This document shows, one piece after another, positions 422-46,151 of a stretch of DNA of 64,000 nt. The notes under the pieces are model-generated. The model made no database searches, was not told the origin of the DNA, and saw only the letters and a program-made list of their open reading frames with translations. The first letter of the stretch is position 1. Each line of letters begins with the position of its first letter. Source of the DNA: Escherichia coli (lineage in GTDB: Bacteria > Pseudomonadota > Gammaproteobacteria > Enterobacterales > Enterobacteriaceae); assembly GCF_003334305.1 (NCBI RefSeq), contig NZ_QOWS01000004.1. One strand, written 5' to 3'. Both the position numbers and the translations under genes were made by a program.

Positions 422-1213
422 TTAGAGATCAATTTCCTGCCGTTTTACCTGTTGCCAGACTTCTTCCATTGTTTCGAGGTCAACACCTGTCATTTCCAGT
501 CCACGCGCGGCAACAATACGCTCCACTTCGCGAAAACGACGCTCAAATTTTTCGTTCGCTTTTTGCAATGCGATTTCCGCTTTTGTCCCTAAATGACGAG
601 CCAGATTGACCGTGGCAAACAGCAGGTCCCCCATTTCCTCCTCCAGTTTAGCCTGGTCGACAACAGCCTGCCGCGCTTCGTACATCACCTCGTCGATCTC
701 TTCGTAGACTTTATCGACTACCGGACCAAGCGTCGTCCAATCGAAGCCAACGTTGGCGCAACGTTTCTGGATTTTTTGCGCACGCATTAAAGCCGGTAAA
801 CTACGAGGAATATCGTCCAGCGCCGAATGCTGCGCTTTCTGCGCGCGCTCTTCGGTTTTGATTTGCTCCCAACGGGCAAGCACTTCACTACTGTTTTCGG
901 CAGAACTGTCAGCAAAAACATGCGGATGGCGACGCTCTAATTTATCGCTAATCGCAGCGCAAATATCATTAAAGTCAAAGCGCCCTTCTTCCTGAGCCAT
1001 TTGCGCGTAAAACACCACCTGGAACAGCAGATCGCCGAGTTCACCGCGCAGATCGTCAAAATCTTCACGGGCGATGGCGTCCAGCACTTCGTAGGTTTCT
1101 TCAAGGGTGTAAGGCGCAATGGTGGCAAATGTCTGCTCTTTATCCCACGGGCAGCCGTTTTCCGGATCGCGCAGGCGCTGCATAATAGTGAGCAAACGGT
1201 CGATTTGATTCAT
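422..1213 (-). CDS. mazG: Nucleoside triphosphate pyrophosphohydrolase MazG
   Basis: 263-aa ORF beginning MNQIDRLLTIMQRLRDPENGCPWDKEQTF, recognised as E. coli MazG; sits immediately downstream of mazEF on the same strand. Confidence 0.95.
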   Translation of the reverse strand: MNQIDRLLTIMQRLRDPENGCPWDKEQTFATIAPYTLEETYEVLDAIAREDFDDLRGELGDLLFQVVFYAQMAQEEGRFDFNDICAAISDKLERRHPHVFADSSAENSSEVLARWEQIKTEERAQKAQHSALDDIPRSLPALMRAQKIQKRCANVGFDWTTLGPVVDKVYEEIDEVMYEARQAVVDQAKLEEEMGDLLFATVNLARHLGTKAEIALQKANEKFERRFREVERIVAARGLEMTGVDLETMEEVWQQVKRQEIDL

Positions 1214-1283
1214 TAGAATGTCCTGAAAATTGCGGGTCTGTCAGGTGGAAACCTGTGACCAGAATAGAAGTGAGTTAGTAACA

Positions 1284-1619
1284 CTACCCAATCAGTACGT
1301 TAATTTTGGCTTTAATGAGTTGTAATTCCTCTGGGACAACCGTTCCTTTCTTCGTTGCTCCTCTTGCCCGCCAGGCGATACTTTTTACCTGATCAGCTAA
1401 CGCTACGCCATCACGTTCCTGACCGGATAAAACAACTTCGAACGGATATCCTTTTGATTGCGTTGTACAAGGAACACACAGACACATACCTGTTTTGTTG
1501 TTGTACATGAAAGGACTCAGGACAACAGCTGGACGATGTCCAGCTTGCTCGCTACCTTTTGTCGGGTCAAAATCAACACAAATCAGATCGCCCATATCGG
1601 GTACGTATCGGCTTACCAT
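1284..1619 (-). CDS. mazF: Type II toxin MazF (mRNA interferase, ACA-specific endoribonuclease)
   Basis: 111-aa [16 protein letters not shown]...INVLIG, recognised as E. coli MazF; start overlaps mazE stop by 1 nt. Confidence 0.96.
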   Translation of the reverse strand: MVSRYVPDMGDLICVDFDPTKGSEQAGHRPAVVLSPFMYNNKTGMCLCVPCTTQSKGYPFEVVLSGQERDGVALADQVKSIAWRARGATKKGTVVPEELQLIKAKINVLIG

Positions 1620-1867
1620 TACCAGACTTCCTTATCTTTCGGCTCTCCCCAGTCGATATTCTCGTGGAGGTTTTCCGGCGTGATGTCGTTGACCAGTTCA
1701 GCAAGCGTAAATACGGGCTCTTTACGCACTGGCTCAATAATTAATTTGCCATCCACCAGGTCAATCTTCACTTCATCATCAATATTCAGATTGAGCGCCT
1801 GCATTAACGTAGCCGGGATCCGCACCGCCGGTGAATTTCCCCAACGCTTTACGCTACTGTGGATCAT
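1619..1867 (-). CDS. mazE: Type II antitoxin MazE
   Basis: 82-aa [50 protein letters not shown]..., recognised as E. coli MazE; directly upstream of mazF. Confidence 0.96.
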
Positions 1868-1944
1868 AACCCTTTCCTCAAACCGCTATCATATGTAGAT
1901 ACAGTATATATCAATCTACATTGTAGATACGAGCAAATTTCTGC

Positions 1945-4179
1945 CTAACTCCCGTGCAACCGACGCGCGTCGATAACATCCGGCACCTGGTTGAGTTTAC
2001 CCAGCACGCGGCCCAGCACCTGCAGGTTGTAAATCTCAATGGTCATGTCGATGGTTGCCAGTTGCTGTTTGGTGTCGCTACGGCTGGCAACACCAAGCAC
2101 GTTCACCTTCTCGTTGGCGAGAATGGTCGTGATATCACGTAACAACCCACTACGATCATTAGCCACCACGCGGACCACCAGCGAATATCCGGCGGAGTAG
2201 CTCTCACCCCATACCGCGTCAACAATGCGTTCTGGCGCATGGGAGCGCAGTTCCGCCAGTTGTTCGCAATCGGCGCGGTGTACTGAAATACCGCGCCCCT
2301 GGGTAATGAAGCCGACAATCTCATCTCCAGGAATCGGCTGGCAGCAGCGCGCGATGTGGTGCATCAGGTTGCCAACACCTTCGACCACCACGCGACCGTT
2401 ATCTTTACTGCGGTTTTGCGGCGTGTAGCTTTTTTGCTGAAGTTGCTTCAGCGCGGCGGCGTCCTGCTCTTCGGCACTCGGCTTATTAAATTGCGATTGC
2501 AGGAAGTTCACCATCTGATTGAGACGGATATCCCCGCCACCAATCGCCGCCAGCAACTCGTCGACATCATTAAAGTTGTAACGCGGCAGCAGATGTTTTT
2601 CTGCTTCTTTCAGGCTGATCCCCAGATGTTCCAGCTCGTCGTCAAGGATTTGCCGCCCAGCCAGAATGTTTTTGTCACGGTCCTGTTTACGGAACCAGGC
2701 GTGAATTTTCGAACGCCCACGGCTGGTTGTGACGTAACCGAGGTTTGGGTTTAACCAGTCACGGCTGGGGTTCGGCTGTTTCTGGGTGATAATTTCAATC
2801 TGGTCGCCCATCTGCAGCTGGTAGGTGAACGGCACAATGCGCCCGCCAATTTTTGCCCCGATGCAGCGGTGTCCGACATCACTGTGGATGTGGTAAGCGA
2901 AGTCCAGCGGCGTTGATCCCGCAGGCAAATCAACGACATCACCTTTCGGCGTAAAGACATACACCCGGTCGTCAAAGACCTGGCTGCGTACTTCGTCGAG
3001 CATTTCGCCGGAATCAGCCATCTCTTCCTGCCACGCAATCAGTTTACGCAGCCAGGCAATCCGGTCTTCATGTCCCGAACGTGCGCCGCCAGCTGCCGCG
3101 CCCTCTTTATATTTCCAGTGCGCAGCAACACCCAACTCTGCATCTTCATGCATCTGTTTGGTGCGGATTTGGATCTCAACGGTTTTGCCACCTGGCCCCA
3201 GAACCACGGTATGAATAGACTGATAACCGTTTGGTTTCGGGTTAGCGACATAATCGTCAAACTCATCCGGCAGGTGGCGATAGTGAGTGTGCACTATCCC
3301 CAGTGCGGCATAACAATCCTGTAAACGCTCGGCGACAATACGTACCGCACGCACATCAAACAGCTCATCGAAGGCGAGGTTCTTTTTCTGCATTTTGCGC
3401 CAGATGCTGTAGATGTGTTTCGGTCGACCATACACTTCAGCTTTAACGCCTTCAGCTTTCATCTCAGCGCGCAGATGGCCGACAAACTCTTCGATATAGT
3501 GTTCGCGGTCGAGACGGCGTTCATGCAGCAGTTTTGCGATGCGTTTGTATTCGGTCGGGTGGAGATAACGGAAGCAGTAATCTTCCAGCTCCCATTTCAG
3601 TTGCCCAATCCCAAGACGGTTCGCCAACGGCGCGTAGATATTGGTGCACTCTTTTGCCGCCAGTACGCGTTCATCTTCCGGCGCATCTTTTACTTCGCGC
3701 AGATGAGCAATACGCTCCGCCAGTTTGATGACCACGCAGCGAAAATCATCGACCATCGCCAATAACATCCGGCGAACGTTATCGACCTGTTCGGAGGAAA
3801 CAGAATCAGTGTGCGTCGCTTTCAGCTGGCGGATCGCCGCCATATCACGCACGCCGTGAATAAGGTTAACAACCGACTTACCGACGCTCTCACGCAGCAC
3901 ATCTTCGCTAACTACGTTGGCATCAGCCAGAGGGAACAGCAGCGCCGCCCGCAGCGTGTCAATGTCCATACTTAATGTCGAGAGGATCTCCACCATCTCA
4001 ACACCACGCCACAATAACAGACTGGCATCCGGATGCCCCTGCGTCTGTTGCAGACAATACGCCCAGGTTTCGGCTAAGCACTCACACGACTTCTGGCTGG
4101 TAATACCCAGACTTGCGATCCATTTTTCCGGATCAAATTCACCAGCCTTATTGATATGTGCACTTCTTACCGCAACCAT
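1945..4179 (-). CDS. relA: GTP pyrophosphokinase RelA ((p)ppGpp synthetase I)
   Basis: 744-aa ORF MVAVRSAHINKAGEFDPEKWIASLG..., full-length match to my memory of E. coli RelA. Confidence 0.97.
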   Translation of the reverse strand: MVAVRSAHINKAGEFDPEKWIASLGITSQKSCECLAETWAYCLQQTQGHPDASLLLWRGVEMVEILSTLSMDIDTLRAALLFPLADANVVSEDVLRESVGKSVVNLIHGVRDMAAIRQLKATHTDSVSSEQVDNVRRMLLAMVDDFRCVVIKLAERIAHLREVKDAPEDERVLAAKECTNIYAPLANRLGIGQLKWELEDYCFRYLHPTEYKRIAKLLHERRLDREHYIEEFVGHLRAEMKAEGVKAEVYGRPKHIYSIWRKMQKKNLAFDELFDVRAVRIVAERLQDCYAALGIVHTHYRHLPDEFDDYVANPKPNGYQSIHTVVLGPGGKTVEIQIRTKQMHEDAELGVAAHWKYKEGAAAGGARSGHEDRIAWLRKLIAWQEEMADSGEMLDEVRSQVFDDRVYVFTPKGDVVDLPAGSTPLDFAYHIHSDVGHRCIGAKIGGRIVPFTYQLQMGDQIEIITQKQPNPSRDWLNPNLGYVTTSRGRSKIHAWFRKQDRDKNILAGRQILDDELEHLGISLKEAEKHLLPRYNFNDVDELLAAIGGGDIRLNQMVNFLQSQFNKPSAEEQDAAALKQLQQKSYTPQNRSKDNGRVVVEGVGNLMHHIARCCQPIPGDEIVGFITQGRGISVHRADCEQLAELRSHAPERIVDAVWGESYSAGYSLVVRVVANDRSGLLRDITTILANEKVNVLGVASRSDTKQQLATIDMTIEIYNLQVLGRVLGKLNQVPDVIDARRLHGS

Positions 4180-4226
4180 CGTCCTCTCCTTTAGGGACCA
4201 GACCTGCCGAAATCGGCAAATCGTAA

Positions 4227-5528
4227 CTATTTAACGCGCGAGAAAAGTACCATCGATTCCAGATGTCCCGTGTGTGGGAACATATCCAGCATCGCCAGTC
4301 GCGCAATGGTATATCCTGCTTTTAATAACGCTTCGCTATCCCGAGCCAGCGTTGCAGGATTACAGGATACATAAACTATACGAATAGGTTCCAGTTTTAT
4401 AATTTGCTGTATAACACCTGCGGCACCTGCTCGCGCGGGGTCCAGCAACACTTTATCGAAGCCGTTTTTCGCCCACGGCTGCTTTGTGACATCTTCTTCA
4501 AGATTTTCATGATAAAACGTCACATTCTGTAAACCATTAAGACGCGCATTCTGCTGGCCTTTTTCCACCAGCGCCGGAACACCTTCTACACCCACCACAC
4601 TGGCAGCTTGTGTCGCCAATGGCAGTGTAAAGTTGCCCATACCGCAGAACAGATCCAGTACGCGATCTTCAGGTTGCACATCCAGCCATTCCAACGCACG
4701 CGCTACCATTTTTTGGTTCACACCCGCATTGACCTGAATAAAATCGCGCGGGCTAAAAGTTAAGCGCAACCCGTTTGAGTCATACCAGGGCATCTCACCA
4801 GAGACGGTTTCGAGTATCTCACTATCGGGGGCGAGATACAGATCCAGGCCTTCAGAATGCGAAAAGCGTTCCAGTTTTTCGCGATCAGCCGAACTTAGCG
4901 GTGCGGTATGGCGCAAAATCATCAGCGTGCCGCTGGTTGCCTGTACCAGTTCAACATGACCAAGATGGCGTATAGCTTGTAAGCTGCCCAGGCATGCCCT
5001 GACTTTGGGCAGCAATGCTTCAAGTTGGGGCACTAAAATGGGGCATTGTTTAACGTCGACAATGTCACTGGAGCCCGCTTTGCGAAAGCCCATCTGAAGT
5101 TGCTGTGTTTTCGGTAAGTAGTTCAAACTTAAACGCGCGCGACGGCGATAGCCCCAGGGAACATCGGCGATCACTTCAGAGACTTCGTGTTTCATTAATC
5201 GGGCGAGTGCCGCACTTTTGCTTCGCTGCTGTAAATCCACGCTGGCGTGTTGTTGCTGACAGCCGCCGCATACGCCAAAATGAGGACAGCGTGGCGTTTC
5301 GCGTTCCGGGCTATCGCTTAACCGGCGCACGACTTTAGCGCGGGCGTACTGTTTTTTATCTTCAGTAACAGTAACTTCCGCGTTTTCCTGTGGCAGTAAT
5401 CCAGGAATAAATAACGCTTTGCCGTTATGTCGCGCCACGCCCTGACCAAAAGAGTCGAGGTCGTTGACTGAAACGGTTATGATCTGACGCGTCGTCGTGC
5501 GTCGTTTTGCAGAGTAGAATTGCGCCAT
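4227..5528 (-). CDS. rlmD: 23S rRNA (uracil1939-C5)-methyltransferase RlmD (RumA)
   Basis: 433-aa [40 protein letters not shown]... with the [11 protein letters not shown] iron-sulfur motif; directly upstream of relA on the same strand. Confidence 0.95.
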
Positions 5529-5584
5529 TGGCGAGACTTTCTCAATTTAACAGTGTGACCTTAATTGTCCCATAACGGAACTCC

Positions 5585-8341
5585 ATGACCAACTACAGCC
5601 TGCGCGCACGCATGATGATTCTGATCCTGGCACCGACCGTCCTTATTGGTTTATTGCTGAGTATCTTTTTCGTCGTGCATCGCTATAACGACTTGCAGCG
5701 TCAACTGGAAGATGCCGGTGCCAGCATTATTGAGCCGCTTGCAGTTTCTACTGAATATGGCATGAGCCTGCAAAATCGCGAATCTATCGGTCAGTTAATA
5801 AGCGTACTGCATCGTCGCCATTCCGATATTGTTCGCGCGATTTCGGTTTATGATGAAAATAACCGACTCTTTGTCACCTCCAATTTTCATCTTGATCCCT
5901 CATCAATGCAGCTCGGCAGCAACGTGCCGTTTCCTCGCCAGCTCACTGTCACTCGTGACGGCGATATTATGATCCTCCGCACGCCGATTATTTCTGAGAG
6001 TTACTCCCCCGACGAATCGCCCAGTAGCGATGCCAAAAATAGTCAAAATATGTTGGGATATATTGCGCTTGAGCTGGATCTTAAATCGGTTCGCTTGCAG
6101 CAATATAAAGAGATCTTTATTTCCAGCGTGATGATGCTGTTTTGTATCGGTATTGCGCTTATTTTTGGCTGGCGCTTAATGCGCGATGTAACCGGTCCGA
6201 TTCGCAACATGGTGAATACCGTCGACCGCATCCGTCGCGGGCAACTCGACAGCCGGGTGGAAGGATTTATGCTCGGCGAGCTGGATATGCTGAAAAACGG
6301 TATCAACTCGATGGCAATGTCGCTGGCTGCTTATCACGAAGAGATGCAGCACAATATCGACCAGGCGACGTCCGATCTGCGTGAAACGCTGGAGCAGATG
6401 GAAATTCAGAACGTTGAGTTAGATCTGGCGAAAAAGCGCGCCCAGGAAGCGGCGCGTATTAAATCCGAGTTTCTGGCAAATATGTCACACGAGCTGCGTA
6501 CACCACTGAATGGTGTTATTGGCTTTACCCGCCTGACGCTGAAAACAGAATTAACACCAACGCAGCGCGATCACCTGAATACGATTGAACGTTCGGCAAA
6601 TAATTTGCTGGCAATTATTAATGATGTTCTCGACTTCTCGAAACTGGAAGCAGGTAAGCTGATTCTGGAAAGTATTCCATTCCCACTACGCAGCACGCTG
6701 GATGAAGTCGTTACTCTGCTGGCACATTCTTCTCACGATAAAGGGTTGGAACTGACGCTCAATATTAAAAGCGACGTGCCTGATAACGTGATCGGCGACC
6801 CACTGCGATTACAGCAAATCATCACTAACCTGGTGGGGAATGCAATTAAATTCACCGAGAATGGCAACATTGATATTCTGGTAGAAAAACGTGCGCTGAG
6901 TAATACCAAAGTGCAGATTGAAGTGCAGATTCGGGATACCGGCATTGGTATTCCTGAACGCGATCAATCGCGCTTATTCCAGGCCTTCCGACAGGCTGAT
7001 GCCAGTATTTCCCGCCGTCATGGTGGCACCGGTCTGGGGCTGGTGATTACACAAAAACTGGTTAATGAAATGGGCGGCGATATTTCGTTCCATAGCCAGC
7101 CGAATCGCGGTTCAACTTTCTGGTTCCACATTAATCTCGATCTGAACCCGAACATTATTATCGAAGGGCCATCCACCCAGTGCCTCGCCGGTAAGCGCCT
7201 GGCCTATGTCGAACCAAACTCCGCAGCAGCGCAATGCACGCTGGATATTTTAAGTGAAACGCCGCTGGAAGTGGTTTATAGCCCAACGTTCTCCGCGCTG
7301 CCTCCCGCGCATTACGACATGATGTTGTTAGGCATCGCGGTGACCTTCCGCGAGCCGCTAACAATGCAACATGAGCGATTAGCGAAAGCGGTATCGATGA
7401 CCGATTTCCTGATGCTGGCACTTCCTTGCCATGCACAAGTCAATGCAGAAAAACTCAAGCAAGATGGTATCGGCGCGTGTCTGCTGAAACCATTAACACC
7501 TACGCGCCTGTTGCCTGCCCTGACGGAATTTTGTCATCACAAACAAAACACGCTTTTGCCTGTAACCGATGAAAGCAAGCTGGCAATGACAGTCATGGCA
7601 GTTGATGACAACCCCGCTAACCTGAAACTTATCGGCGCATTGCTGGAAGATATGGTGCAACATGTGGAACTTTGCGATAGCGGGCATCAGGCGGTTGAAC
7701 GGGCGAAACAGATGCCGTTCGATTTGATCTTAATGGATATTCAAATGCCTGACATGGATGGCATTCGGGCCTGCGAGCTCATCCACCAGCTCCCCCATCA
7801 GCAACAAACGCCGGTTATCGCGGTAACGGCGCATGCAATGGCCGGGCAAAAAGAGAAGCTGCTTGGCGCAGGGATGAGCGATTATCTGGCGAAACCGATT
7901 GAAGAAGAGCGATTGCATAATTTGTTGTTGCGCTACAAGCCTGGCAGCGGTATTTCCTCTCGCGTCGTGACGCCCGAAGTCAACGAAATTGTGGTGAACC
8001 CGAATGCGACCCTCGACTGGCAACTGGCACTACGCCAGGCAGCAGGAAAAACCGATTTAGCGCGCGATATGCTGCAAATGTTACTCGATTTCCTGCCTGA
8101 AGTTCGCAACAAAGTTGAGGAACAGCTGGTTGGAGAAAACCCGGAAGGCCTGGTTGATTTGATTCATAAACTGCATGGCAGTTGCGGCTATAGCGGTGTG
8201 CCGCGTATGAAGAATCTCTGCCAACTGATCGAACAACAGCTACGTAGCGGTACTAAAGAAGAAGATTTGGAGCCGGAGCTGCTGGAACTGTTGGACGAGA
8301 TGGATAATGTAGCGCGCGAAGCCAGCAAAATTCTCGGGTAA
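5585..8341 (+). CDS. barA: Hybrid sensor histidine kinase BarA (tripartite HK-REC-HPt)
   Basis: 918-aa [34 protein letters not shown]... with an H-box ([17 protein letters not shown]), a receiver domain ([14 protein letters not shown]) and a C-terminal HPt region. Confidence 0.97.
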
Positions 8342-14683: not shown

Positions 14684-15052
14684 AATAAAAAAAGGGAGCA
14701 CTGTATTCACAGCGCTCCCGGTTCGTTTCGCAGCATTCCAGCTACTTTTGTTGCTCCCTGCTCATCCTTGACAACTTTTCCTCTGGCCTTGCGGCCAATC
14801 GTTCATCCTGAACTATTGCTTCCTGCTCACACCACCCCGATGTGATACTTCATCCTGAAGTGTCCCTGGCCTTCCTGACCCACCGAATCATCCTGACCGG
14901 TTCTCATTCTCCATCCTGGAGGTGTCCTTTAACGCGTCCTGCGTCATCCTCTTCGCTTCATCCAGAAGCCTTTCCCTGAAACACCATCCTGGTGTGTCCT
15001 GCAGAAGTGTCATCATCCTGATGTTCACTTCGTTGTCTGACTCCCTGTCGAC
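14684..15052 (-). ncRNA. csrB: CsrB small RNA (CsrA-sequestering sRNA)
   Basis: No long ORF. The plus strand carries at least 8 exact CATCCTG heptamers (CAGGATG on the minus strand) plus about 10 further TCCTG/GGA variants spaced ~15-25 nt apart. Minus-strand 5' end GTCGACAGGGAGTCAGACAACGAAG; 3' end is a GC hairpin (gggagcactgtattcacagcgctccc) followed by a U-run. Confidence 0.93.
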
Positions 15053-18200: not shown

Positions 18201-18757
18201 TCTCCCCCTCCCCCGGTGACGTTTGTTGCCGGGTTTTCTCGTTTTTGGTCACTTACTCATCAACTCATTTCATTTGTTATATGAATGTTTCTTACCACCC
18301 TCACGCGACAAATATCATCACAGTTAATATGTCATACAATTTATGTTGCAACGCAAACGTTTCCCTATTTTCATAAACCGTATTTTATCGCTATGAAAAA
18401 GAAATTATCGCCATGATTAACTAAAAGTATTGATTTTTTCAGTTCAACCTACATATATTGCGCGCCCCGGAAGAAGTCAGATGTCGTTTAATGGGCAAAT
18501 ATTGCCCTTAAATTCTCTTTTACTTTTGATTTACAGAGTAAAGCGTTGGGATAATCTATCTTCCAAGTAGATTATTGTATTTGAGATCAAGATCACTGAT
18601 AGATACATAACTTGTGTGTATCTTTCCGCCCTCAAATTATTACGGCGGTAAATGATTAAGCCATCGCCGATAGACAGATTTCATTTTTACGGTCAGGCAC
18701 CTTCCCGGGCTGAACTGGCTAAAAGCTGAATTATTTGCATTCCTCCAGGAGAAATAG

Positions 18758-33224: not shown

Positions 33225-33430
33225 ACTTCCTGAGCCGGAACGAAAAGTTTTATCGGAATGCGTGTTCTGGTGAACTTTTGGCTTACGGTTGTGATGTTGT
33301 GTTGTTGTGTTTGCAATTGGTCTGCGATTCAGACCATGGTAGCAAAGCTACCTTTTTTCACTTCCTGTACATTTACCCTGTCTGTCCATAGTGATTAATG
33401 TAGCACCGCCTAATTGCGGTGCTTTTTTTT
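33225..33430 (+). ncRNA. gcvB: GcvB small regulatory RNA
   Basis: No ORF. Begins ACTTCCTGAGCCGGAACG, carries the GU-rich seed tract GTTGTGATGTTGTGTTGTTGTGTTTGC, and ends in the intrinsic terminator gcaccgcctaattgcggtgc + T8. It is divergent from gcvA, the canonical arrangement. Confidence 0.93.
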
Positions 33431-37753: not shown

Positions 37754-37830
<77 letters not shown>

Positions 37831-40782: not shown

Positions 40783-42609
40783 TTATTCCCGTGAACTAAA
40801 CAACGCCGCCAGACCACTGCGCCGCTCAGTACGAGTGGCGATTGCCGCACTTAATATGCGCTCATCGGCATACAGCGACAGACGGCGACGCGCGCGGGTC
40901 ACCGCGGTATAAACCAGCTCTCGCGTTACTACCGGCGTGCGTTGGCTCGGCAAAATCAACGCCGCATGGTCGAACTCCGATCCCTGCGATTTATGTACCG
41001 TCATCGCCCACGTAGTTTCGTGCTCTGGCAAGCGACTCGGTTGCACAGACTTAATATTGCCGTCCGGCATCGCAAACCAGACGCGCGTCCCCTGCCCGCG
41101 ATCCAGCGCAATACCGATATCGCCATTAAACAACCCAAGCGCGCTGTCATTACGGGCAATCATCACCGGTCGACCTTCGTACCAACGAGAGTGCGGATGA
41201 CGATGAATTTTGCGCTTCTGTTGCATAAACTGCTCAATTCGCTCATTCAGTCCAGCCACGCCAAACGGCCCTTCCCGCAGGGCGCACAAAAGCTGGTACT
41301 CATTGAACGCCTGAATGATTAAATCCGGCTCGGCACGCGCTTGCAGCAGATCCAGATAACGTCCGTAACCCGCAAGAGCTTCCTCAAGCATCGCAATATA
41401 ATCTTCGCCGCTCTGTAAAAGCCGTTTTTCGATATCAGTAAAATCCTGCTGAAAAACGGTTTTCACTGCCGTTTTATCACCACGGTTGATCGCCGCAGCT
41501 AACTGACCAATGCCAGAATCGCTGCCGAAACGATAGCTTTTTTGCAGCAGGCAGAGACTGTCGCGCAAAGATGCCGCTTCTGTGCCGGTTCCTGCCGGAA
41601 CGTGAGTCCCCGTCAGGCGGCTTAGCTGCCCGGCACGCTCGGCGGTAAAGCCGGCATTGGCATAAGCGCAGATATCGCCCAGCACAGCCCCAGCCTCAAC
41701 CGAGGCCAGTTGATCACGATCGCCGAGAAAGATCACTCGCGCATGATCGGGCAAGGCGTCGATCAGTCTCGACATCATAGGCAGATCGATCATTGACGCT
41801 TCATCTACCACCAGCACATCAAGATGCAGCGGGTTACCGGCATGATGACGTAAACGCTGGCTACCCGGCTGCGCACCCAGCAATCGGTGCAAAGTACTGG
41901 CATCTTCCGGAATGCGTTTCTTTTGTTCATCGGTCAGCGGTAACTGTCGCAAAGCCTTGCCGAGAGATTCGGTTAAGCGCGCGGCAGCTTTACCCGTTGG
42001 TGCAGCCAGACGGATACGGCAGCGTTCGCCGTCGGCCATTTGAATTAACGCTGCCAGTAACTTCGCCACGGTGGTCGTTTTACCGGTGCCTGGGCCGCCG
42101 GAAATCACCGAGATCCGCCGCGTCAGCGCCACTGCCGCTGCAACTTTTTGCCAGTTAATTTCATCGCTTACTGGAAAAAGTTTGTCCAGGGTTTGCGCCA
42201 GTAGAGCTTCATCAACCTCAATGGCATGATTCACCTCATTGAAGAAGCGCGCTACCGTCCGCTCGTTACACCACATGCGATTCAAATAAAGACGATCGCC
42301 ACAGAGGATCATCGGCGTGGGTTCATCTCCCCTGCTGACTGCTTGAGAAGCCAGCAAGCATTCTTCCCAATTTTGTAGCTCACCGATTTCACTGACACAG
42401 GTCGCCAACAGCGGATGCGACGCCTCGTTATTTTCCAGTCGTGAAAGCGGCAAACAGACGTGTCCCTCTCCGGCATCATGACTTAACAGTGCCGCCGCGA
42501 GGGTGACGGCAGGATGTTCATCTCCCGCCACGGTCAGGGCAAATTGCACATCCAGCGGGCGTAGCTGTTTGTGCTCCACAGCTTCCAGTAATTGCTTTTG
42601 CAATTTCAT
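40783..42609 (-). CDS. recD: Exodeoxyribonuclease V alpha subunit (RecD helicase)
   Basis: 608-aa [32 protein letters not shown]... with Walker [10 protein letters not shown]. Confidence 0.96.
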
Positions 42610-45600
42610 TACGCCTCCTCCAGGGTCATACCGGCAAACATCTCATCCATCAGGGCAATCAACCCGGCGTTGGGTCGGGTTGTGTAAATCCCTTGTTGCG
42701 GATGTTCTTTATCAACGCCACGCAGGAACAGATAGATAACGCCGCCAAAGTGACGATCATAGTCGTAATCAGCAATGCGATGGCGCAGATAACGATGCAG
42801 CGCCAGGGTATAAAGCTGATATTGCAGATCATAGCGGTGTGCCTGCATCGCTGCTGCCATAGCCTGTTGGGTGTAAGCCGAACTGTCTTCACCCAGCCAG
42901 TTGGATTTATAGTCGAGCAGGTAATAACGCCCTTCGTGGCGGAATACCAGGTCGATAAAGCCTTTTAACATGCCGCGTACCTGCATGAACTCCAGCGGCG
43001 GGCAGCCAGCGGATAGCGGGTCAAACTGGCGAATTAGTGCATCAAGCTGGCTGGCGATGAGCGGTTCGCTAATCGGCAGGTAAAACTCCATCTCCACCTG
43101 TTTATCGCGGTCGGAAAGCTGACTCAGGCTAACACCCGTTTCATTGAGAGATGCCTGGAGGACAGCCGTGATCCACTCGGTCAACACCGGTTCCCACTGC
43201 GATTCAAAGCCGCCGAGTTCCAGTTTTTCCTGTACCCAGTTCGGGTCAACCGGCCGGGTAAAATCGAGGTCTTCAAACAAACTGTGCAAGAATGTCCCCG
43301 GTGACGCACCGCGCGGGAACTGATGCGGTGTTAACGTCGGTTCTTCAACGACGCTGACCACGCCTGCGGCATCAACATCCAGCCGTGGCATCAGATCCTG
43401 AGCGATACCGTGACCACGCTGCTGCAAGCCGGAGTAGCTGGTGACACGCCAGTTATCGCCGGGCAATCGTTGTAGTGTCCTCGCATTCAGTTCTGCAGTT
43501 AAAGCATCATTAACCTGCCAGGGCTGGTTATCACCAGTTTGTGCCGTTTGCCAGGCAATATCATCATCGCATAACGCTTCAATACAGGTGCGAAGCCCTG
43601 CCGCATCTTGCGGTTCCCCTTTTTGCAGCAAACGCCCGAGCGCACTTTGGTGGACGTCGGTGTCACCTTTTTTATCGCCACGACGGCGCACCAGCGGTGC
43701 AACGCCGAGACTACAATGCCAAACCGAACGCGTCAGCGCCACGTAAAGCAAACGCAGATCTTCCGCCAGACGTTCGGCCTCCGCGAGATCGACACTTTCT
43801 GGCACAGCGTTAAGATCCAGAACAGCCTCAAACGAGTGTCGATCGTGATAAAACGCCTGATCCTGGACGCGGAAATTGGTAATAAATGGCAACCAGACCA
43901 GCGGATATTCCAGCCCTTTCGATTTATGTATCGTGACAATCTGCACCAAATGTTTGTCGCTTTCGAGGCGCATTTGTTGGCTGGAGGCATTACTGTCTGG
44001 CTCGAGGATATGTTGCGATAACCAGCGTACCAGCGCATGTTCACTTTCCAGCTGCGTTCCGGCTTCTTGTAGCAGTTCGCTGATATGCAAGATATCGGTA
44101 AGACGCCGCTCACCGCCTGCCGTTGCCAGCAAGTTTTCTGCAATGTTACGCGCCGACATCAGCGCCCGCAGCATCGGCATAACGCCACGTTTGCGCCAGA
44201 TTTGCCGATAACCATCGAACTCTTCGACTACCGCATCCCACGCATGTTCGTCATTATTCAGCGTTTCAATATCCAGCGCATTCAGCCCCATCATTGACGT
44301 TGCCAGCGCACTGCGCAGGGTGTTCTCACGTTCGGGCGTCATCACCGCCTGCAACAACCAAAGCATTTCCTGCGCTTCCAGAGTTTCAAAAACACTGTCG
44401 CGGTTCGAAAGGTAAACGGAAGGGATTTCCAGCAACGTTAAGGCATCGCGCACCTGGGCGGCCTCCTGGCGGCTGCGCACCAGCACGCTGATGTCCGAAG
44501 CACGCACCGAACGCGCGTCGTCGCCGTTCATCAGCAACGCTTCGCCCCGCTGTCCGGCTTGTAGCCAGTCGCGGATTTGCGCAGCACATACCTGCGCCAT
44601 GGTACTTTGATAGTCGCCAACGCCGCAGCTTTCGCCTTCCATCAGCCACATTTTCATCGCAGGCTGCGTTTCACCTTTAAATACAAAACGTAACGCCTGA
44701 TTTTTCCCGGCTGATTTCACTGGAATAAACGGTATTTCGCGAAACATGAACGCGTCATCAGTCTGGCTGAAAAGCTTATTCACGCTGTTCACCATTCCTG
44801 GTGCGGAACGCCAGTTGGTGTCTAAAGTGTAGTGGGCGTGAACTTCGCTACGCGCCTTCATATAAGTGAAGATATCCGCACCCCGGAATGCATATATGGC
44901 CTGTTTCGGGTCGCCAATTAGCAACAATGCGGTTTCCGGCTGATGGTGCCAGATACGGCGAAAAATTCGGTACTGCTGGGGGTCGGTATCCTGAAATTCA
45001 TCGATCATTGCCACCGGGAATCGCGTACGGATCGCCGCTGCCAACACCTCACCGCTTTCGCTACGCAGCGCGGAATCGAGCCGACTTAACATGTCATCAA
45101 AACCCAATTCGCCACGGCGGCGTTTTTCACGCGCTACTGTTTCGCGGATCTCAGCCAATGCGCGGGTGATCACCAGATCGCGGATCGACAATGGTTCTGC
45201 AAGCAGTTGATCGATCGCCTCAAACAGTGGATGTCGCGGGGTTTCCCCCCCGGCTTTCGTGCGATCTTCTAAGAAACGCTGGGAGAATTTTTCCAGCGAC
45301 TCTGGCAACTGATAACTGTTGGTCTCTTCTTCTGCCCAGGCGCTGATCTTTTCGATCCATTTAGCCTGATTACTACGGTTAAACTTGCGTCGATCAATAC
45401 CAGAAGATTCGATCAGCGCATCCAGTTCACCCACTGCGTCGCGCCACTGCTGTTTTACCGTATCAATACGCGCCACAATTTGCGCGTGGCGGGAAGCCAG
45501 CGTTTCATCATCGGGCGGCGGTGCTTTGATAACCGGCGCTTCGCCTTGCAGATAACGATTAATATCGCGCAGCAACGCCTGCGGCCCTTTCCAGGTTTCA

Positions 45601-46151
45601 AAGACGACCTGGGCTATTTCACGCGGCAGCGGGTAGCAGTGGCGACGCCAGAAATCGGCGCAGGCCTGGTAGCGTAGCAGAGACTCATCTTCAATCAGCT
45701 GCTGCTCAAACAGCATACCGGATTCAAAGGCATTCAGGTTGAGCATGCGCTGGCAAAAACCGTGAATAGTAAAGACTGCCGCTTCATCCATCTGCCGTTC
45801 GGCTAACAACAACCACTGCGCGGCTTGCGCTTTATCGTCGATCTCTTCCAGCAGGCGTTCGTACAGTGGATTGTCGGTGGTTTCACGCAGACAGGCGATG
45901 CGCAACTCGTGGATATTGCTACGGATACGACCGCGCAATTCTGCCGTGGCAGCCTCGGTAAAGGTGACCACCAGCAGTTCTTCAACGGTCAGCGGGCGGG
46001 GAAAGGCGGCGGAACCGCCTAGTCCAAGTAACAGGCGCAAATAGAGCGCCGCAATCGTAAAGGTTTTGCCTGTGCCGGCAGAGGCTTCAATCAGGCGCTC
46101 GCCCTGTAAGGGCAAGCGCAAAGGATCTAGTGTCTCGGCGACATCACTCAT
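42609..46151 (-). CDS. recB: Exodeoxyribonuclease V beta subunit (RecB helicase-nuclease)
   Basis: The ORF track begins at a GTG (46160); the recognised protein begins [41 protein letters not shown] at the ATG that is the reverse complement of 46149-46151, giving 1180 aa. Confidence 0.96.

Follow-up and report, generated by a model that had tools for sequence, protein, structure and literature searches.

The pair of small genes that lies between relA and mazG in Escherichia coli raises the question whether it is the canonical mazEF module in an intact state, and whether its position ties it functionally to the stringent response gene relA. The locus was analyzed in a window of 64,000 nt, this being the whole stretch of DNA under study (contig NZ_QOWS01000004.1, assembly GCF_003334305.1), in which the coding sequences of mazE and mazF together span exactly positions 1284–1867. 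In answer to the first question, the pair is most probably, at roughly 96%, mazEF (chpA) as known from the Escherichia coli chromosome, a canonical type II toxin-antitoxin module, and, judged from its sequence, the module of the window is intact and ordinary. A preliminary description had called the module well known, and rightly so, as textbook E. coli mazEF was encountered at its usual site. E. coli mazEF ranks with the best-studied toxin-antitoxin pairs, and textbooks place it between relA and mazG, so that this identification carries little significance beyond annotation.

Identity and layout of the pair

Both proteins were assigned with large margins over the thresholds of their families. 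The toxin matched the NCBIfam equivalog NF007386 over residues 1–111 of 111 (219.5 bits against a cut-off of 120, E 5.7e-66) and Pfam PF02452, PemK_toxin (4.6e-22), the antitoxin NCBIfam equivalog NF007312 over residues 1–82 of 82 (196.2 bits against a cut-off of 113, E 6.9e-59) and Pfam PF04014, MazE_antitoxin (4.6e-14). The affiliation to PemK/MazF and MazE/AbrB-type families suggested earlier was hence recovered for both at equivalog level, and the next-best NCBIfam models (ChpB, ChpS and an Agrobacterium MazEF pair) scored well under their cut-offs. Structures of E. coli MazF and of the MazE-MazF complex (PDB 3nfc, 5ck9, 1ub4) matched the toxin at about 1e-70.

MazE is predicted to consist of an N-terminal AbrB/SpoVT-type DNA-binding domain (residues 6–51) and a C-terminal tail that would bind MazF. 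The DNA-contact residues K7, R8 and R16 and the MazF-binding tail, the roles of which are described in PMC4333400, are present, 82 of 82 residues being those of K-12 MazE. In the translated toxin the catalytic and substrate-loop residues E24, R29 and T52 are found; they are kept in 114, 114 and 119, respectively, of 122 full-length MazF representatives, 38–61% identical, that a search through 1.84 billion proteins had yielded. In Klebsiella pneumoniae the equivalents of R29 and T52 are the catalytic Arg28 and Thr51 (PMC8086154).

Coordinates, order and co-orientation of the two frames, previously described as overlapping by 1 nt between relA and mazG, proved exact in every respect (Table 1). 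Transcription order is relA, mazE, mazF, mazG, all on the minus strand, with 77 nt from the end of relA to mazE and 70 nt from the end of mazF to mazG. Base 1619 is common to the stop codon of mazE and the start codon of mazF (TAATG, minus-strand 1621 to 1617), and this overlap suggests coupled translation. Ribosome-binding sites were found before the ATG of mazE (GAGGA) and before mazF, within the 3' end of mazE (AAGGAAG). The layout is that of a type II toxin-antitoxin system: a small, co-oriented and overlapping gene pair with the antitoxin first. In strain H15, which carries a 100% identical cassette, PGAP calls mazF and mazE at the same coordinates.

Table 1. Positions of the mazEF locus, its neighbours and further features in the 64,000-nt window.
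Feature	Position	Strand	Basis or remark
mazG, nucleoside triphosphate pyrophosphohydrolase, 263 aa	422-1213	-	TIGR00444 419 bits; NF007113 370 bits
mazF-mazG spacer	1214-1283	-	without terminator-like element
Whole mazEF cassette, 697 nt	1248-1944	-	alignment against the empty relA-mazG site
mazF, endoribonuclease toxin, 111 aa	1284-1619	-	ATG-started ORF
mazF codon 14	1578-1580	-	TGT (Cys); TGG (Trp) in K-12
mazE, antitoxin, 82 aa	1619-1867	-	ATG-started ORF
relA-mazE spacer, mazEF promoter and operator	1868-1944	-	repeat search, exact arm positions
Operator arm ATCTACA, 7 nt	1894-1900	-	
ATATAT core of operator site 'a'	1906-1911	-	
Operator arm TGTAGAT, 7 nt	1914-1920	-	
Operator arm ATCTACA, 7 nt	1922-1928	-	
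relA, GTP diphosphokinase / (p)ppGpp synthetase I, 744 aa	1945-4179	-	NF008124 equivalog, 1678 bits, residues 1-744 of 744
CsrB regulatory RNA, full length, usual place	14684-15043	-	Rfam 380 bits
GcvB regulatory RNA, full length, usual place	33225-33430	+	Rfam 199 bits
tRNA-Met (CAT), single copy	37754-37830	+	
recBCD	40783-52576		

The K-12 pair MazE-MazF (ChpAI-ChpAK; PDB 1UB4, 5CR2, 3NFC) shares locus, gene lengths and the 1-nt overlap with that of the window. The mazE genes are identical in protein and DNA, whereas MazF is identical in 109 of 111 residues (98%) and differs by W14C and A95V. Three base changes in mazF underlie this comparison, namely G>T at nt 42 (W14C), C>T at nt 284 (A95V) and the synonymous A>G at nt 279. 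The latter, at window position 1341, removes one ACA, the cleavage motif of MazF, leaving 8 sites in mazF compared with 9 in K-12; mazE contains 2 ACA sites, with 4.4 expected from base composition.

Other members of the family stand further off. ChpBI-ChpBK (ChpS-ChpB), the second chromosomal MazEF-type pair of E. coli, has the same two folds and the same order of antitoxin and toxin, but is situated at another locus and shows a looser cleavage specificity (PMC7781912). Cross-matches to ChpB and ChpS reached only 54.2 and 34.6 bits, far under the cut-offs of 129 and 101, and the pair of the window is therefore not ChpBI-ChpBK. EndoA of Bacillus subtilis (MazF-bs/YdcE; PDB 4MDX, 1NE8) is a distant relative within the same toxin family (8e-5), and its antitoxin presumably shares no sequence relationship with E. 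coli MazE. In contrast to the E. coli toxin it recognises UACAU, not ACA (PMC7781912). Kis-Kid / PemI-PemK of plasmids R1/R100 has the same PemK/MazF toxin fold (PDB 1m1f, 4e-9) and works on the same principle as mazEF, as an addiction module of type II whose antitoxin is autoregulatory (PMC4333400), yet it is plasmid-borne, whereas the cassette of the window is chromosomal, and the cleavage motif reported for it differs (PMC7781912).

A palindromic operator had been predicted for the spacer between relA and mazE, and it was indeed detected there in the form of three 7-nt arms and an ATATAT core, the middle arm TGTAGAT being able to pair with either neighbouring arm. The published operator is a 47-bp 'c-a-b' "alternating palindrome" with three MazE dimer sites and an ATATAT palindrome (PMC4333400). 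Arms and core, at positions 1894–1928, are identical to those of K-12, the sole difference in the spacer, at window position 1942, being located outside the arms, and the spacer thus carries the known three-arm mazEF operator. A consensus promoter scan yielded 3 sites with 1.8 expected, which is not significant and did not place the mazEF promoter; the promoter was therefore taken from the literature. A minus-strand terminator-like element was sought in the spacer between mazF and mazG and none was found there (RNA fold z = 0.00 relative to shuffles), so that this spacer is consistent with read-through into mazG, and co-transcription of mazG with mazEF has been reported (PMC1626106).

The way in which the module would work can be transferred from studies of the K-12 pair, given the identical MazE and the 98% identical MazF (PMC7781912, PMC4333400, PMC1626106, PMC8749433). 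Dimers of MazF would cut single-stranded RNA at ACA, independently of the ribosome as is known for the K-12 toxin, and thereby halt translation, and a MazE dimer would bind two MazF dimers via its disordered C-terminal tails and block them in a complex MazF2-MazE2-MazF2. Aided by MazF, MazE would also bind the 'c-a-b' operator and repress its own promoter. MazE is expected to be unstable and degraded by ClpAP and Lon, unlike the stable toxin, and owing to this instability anything that stops MazE synthesis would free MazF. The physiological role is disputed, with stress-induced stasis, cell death, limitation of phage spread and selfish persistence all having been put forward (PMC7167474, PMC7781912), and effects of mazEF on phage P1 and RNA phages were reported (PMC1626106 among the sources).

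The Cys14 variant of the toxin

The sole unusual feature of mazEF in the window is W14C, an uncommon natural change, by which the conserved Trp14 of strand beta-1 is absent from the toxin and Cys stands in its place. Among the 122 homologues position 14 is occupied by Trp in 98 (80%) and by Cys in 0, and position 95 is freely variable. Ten other residues (Y, K, M, L, S, F, R, E, H and V) also occur at position 14, and Trp14 is thus frequent in the MazF family without defining it. With Trp in 98 of 122 sequences and Cys in none, a functional effect of W14C is possible. The legend of a review figure names Trp-14 as involved in substrate specificity, with no primary reference traceable in the review text (PMC7781912), and a literature search for experimental data on MazF W14C found none. 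The uncommon allele at this strongly conserved position would be an informative variant with respect to toxicity and specificity.

The distribution of the variant was followed in 5426 complete E. coli genomes, for which the 731-nt cassette region served as query. An exact 61-mer with Cys14 was present in 28 of the 4419 genomes positive for mazF, and the whole 731-nt region was 100% identical in 26 genomes from very varied hosts. The exact C14/V95 protein was recorded on at least 1000 contigs of a larger collection, again from varied hosts, and C14/A95 on 39 contigs, while both Trp14 forms occurred on at least 1000 contigs each.

It could be assumed from these figures that the toxin is a natural hypomorph or a variant of altered specificity, in which W14C weakens folding, RNA binding or ACA recognition and leaves the module partly disarmed or drifting. 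Such an explanation would agree with the prevalence of Trp and the lack of Cys among the representatives, with the connection of Trp-14 to substrate specificity in the review legend, with the rarity of Cys14 in complete genomes and with its occurrence together with both A95 and V95. However, position 14 is not invariant in the family, the C14/V95 protein is widely spread over hosts with the rest of the cassette 100% conserved, and mazE and the operator beside Cys14 are intact and identical to K-12, unlike those of a decaying module. Engineered MazF variants free of Trp are also reportedly still toxic. The unchanged antitoxin and operator and the wide spread of the allele argue against a module in decay, and we regard a hypomorphic or altered toxin as rather doubtful; such a toxin would bear on function alone and leave the identity of the pair as mazEF unaffected. 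It is likewise unlikely that Cys14 MazF circulates in nature as a toxin variant whose activity, stability or cleavage specificity has changed. If this were true, it would amount to a natural experiment in which a chromosomal toxin is tuned or disarmed with antitoxin and operator untouched, and the presence of Cys14 in A95 and V95 backgrounds could mean recurrent selection, not recombination.

Strain 357900 possesses Cys14 on a locally K-12-like haplotype. Its mazG-mazEF-relA region (corresponding to window positions 422–4000) is a mosaic, K-12-like at about 908–2092 and window-like from about 2164, and Cys14 is the only window-like site in the K-12-like block. The informative markers nearest to Cys14 are 237 and 364 nt off (window positions 1341 and 1942). 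Because the region is mosaic and the markers are distant, a recurrent W14C mutation and a short conversion tract are indistinguishable in this strain; recombination around the mazEF locus is evidently frequent.

An accessory cassette between relA and mazG

The 731-nt region was recovered at a coverage of at least 80% in 4416 of the 5426 genomes, with matches in 4614 places, all of them chromosomal and 0 on plasmids. A 61-nt probe inside mazF detected the gene in 4419 genomes (81.4%), and a probe for the relA-mazG junction, derived from a mazEF-free strain, detected an uninterrupted junction in 1007 (18.6%). As 4419 and 1007 add up to 5426, the polymorphism seems to be a simple one of two states, with mazEF present as an accessory cassette or absent; the count puts figures on what reviews state qualitatively. 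When the two genes were compared across strains for their intactness, as had been proposed at the outset, both were found intact in the window and in the majority of strains. In three complete genomes the match to the cassette is split over two places, and in three the mazF probe is present and the cassette stays below 80% coverage in one place; these genomes probably carry insertions inside mazEF.

Alignment of occupied and empty sites delimited the cassette sharply, homology breaking off directly behind the stop codon of relA and restarting 34 nt before the ATG of mazG, with the result that the 697 nt of the cassette replace 61 nt of a hairpin-forming spacer. No flanking direct repeats were found at the cassette boundaries in this alignment. 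GC content amounts to 0.458 in mazF and 0.351 in the spacer between relA and mazE, as compared to 0.540 in relA. In the mazEF-free strain PK8261 (positions 3001–3095 of the retrieved locus) the spacer between relA and mazG is 95 nt long and folds into two successive hairpins, the first of 12 bp, with -33.2 kcal/mol (z = -6.0); it looks like a possible REP-type palindromic unit. The accessory nature of mazEF and an undisturbed relA-mazG operon in strains such as UTI89 have been described before (PMC7167474).

The preliminary description had regarded relA, mazEF and mazG as one cluster in which stringent-response and toxin-antitoxin functions sit together. Co-oriented adjacency stands, whereas the link to the stringent response is one of position and not obligatory, given the 1007 genomes without mazEF. 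A stronger version holds that relA-mazE-mazF-mazG are a single stringent-response unit, the ppGpp made by RelA shutting the mazEF promoter and MazG tuning the response, so that position reflects function. The four genes do point in the same direction, the allele of the window has no terminator-like element after relA or between mazF and mazG, and both a ppGpp-triggered activation and a modulating role of MazG were reported (PMC1626106). Against this, relA is directly followed by the hairpin-forming spacer and mazG in nearly a fifth of the genomes, and the inserted segment has sharp boundaries and a GC content below that of its neighbours. In addition, a review finds mazEF without functional link to its neighbours, the relA-mazG operon being undisturbed in mazEF-free strains and Salmonella having parDE in the same spacer (PMC7167474). 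A functional unit of the four genes is for these reasons unlikely, and mazEF is preferably understood as an accessory cassette in the spacer between relA and mazG.

In the K-12-type laboratory strain OV2 (positions 3731–6727 of the retrieved locus) an element of the IS2 family interrupts relA, which is annotated there as a pseudogene; the interruption presumably represents the classical relA1 allele. Many laboratory strains used in work on mazEF are relA-defective.

The opposite strand and the remainder of the window

Several overlapping open reading frames on both strands are listed for this locus, and the mazEF frames might accordingly be due to chance or obscure a true antisense gene, e.g., the 146-aa plus-strand frame at 1458–1898, but this is practically negligible, as four overlapping alternative frames matched zero NCBIfam families at E<=0.1, the minus-strand pair matches its families at 1e-59 to 1e-66, and the plus-strand aMEF, which begins inside mazF, was described as a non-coding antisense RNA and not as a protein (PMC8749433). 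The pair is thus retained as mazEF.

Beyond the locus the window and strain H15 are collinear and 99.98% identical, and the PGAP annotation of H15 lists a run of pyrG, barA, gud, fuc, gcvA, csd, recBCD-ptrA, thyA, ptsP, mutH and lplT. The PGAP annotation of the collinear H15 contains no other toxin-antitoxin pair, and the Rfam matches in the window are limited to CsrB, GcvB and one tRNA. The module had been described as the only addiction module of a defence or stress type in the window. According to the annotation of H15 and the Rfam matches this is valid for toxin-antitoxin systems, but recBCD is present as well, and RecBCD, although a housekeeping enzyme, acts as a nuclease barrier against the DNA of phages. 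With PADLOC, RecB and RecD gave partial helicase-domain similarities and MutH a weak REase_II match (E 4.3e-4), and seven other proteins tested gave no match. MazE, MazF and MazG all remained without a match in PADLOC-DB v2, a library that may merely have no mazEF model, and a defence role of the pair consequently receives no support from it. Neither a further toxin-antitoxin pair nor a dedicated defence module was found in the window.

CsrB and GcvB are both missing from the retrieved PGAP feature tables of H15. At the site of the single tRNA-Met, H15 has three tandem copies and the window is shorter by 220 nt, the length of two repeat units, which may be either a real copy-number variant of metZWV or an assembly collapse. 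At about position 18208, in the spacer between ppnN and sdaC, a C-run differs from that of H15 by one base in length and may be a homopolymer sequencing difference.
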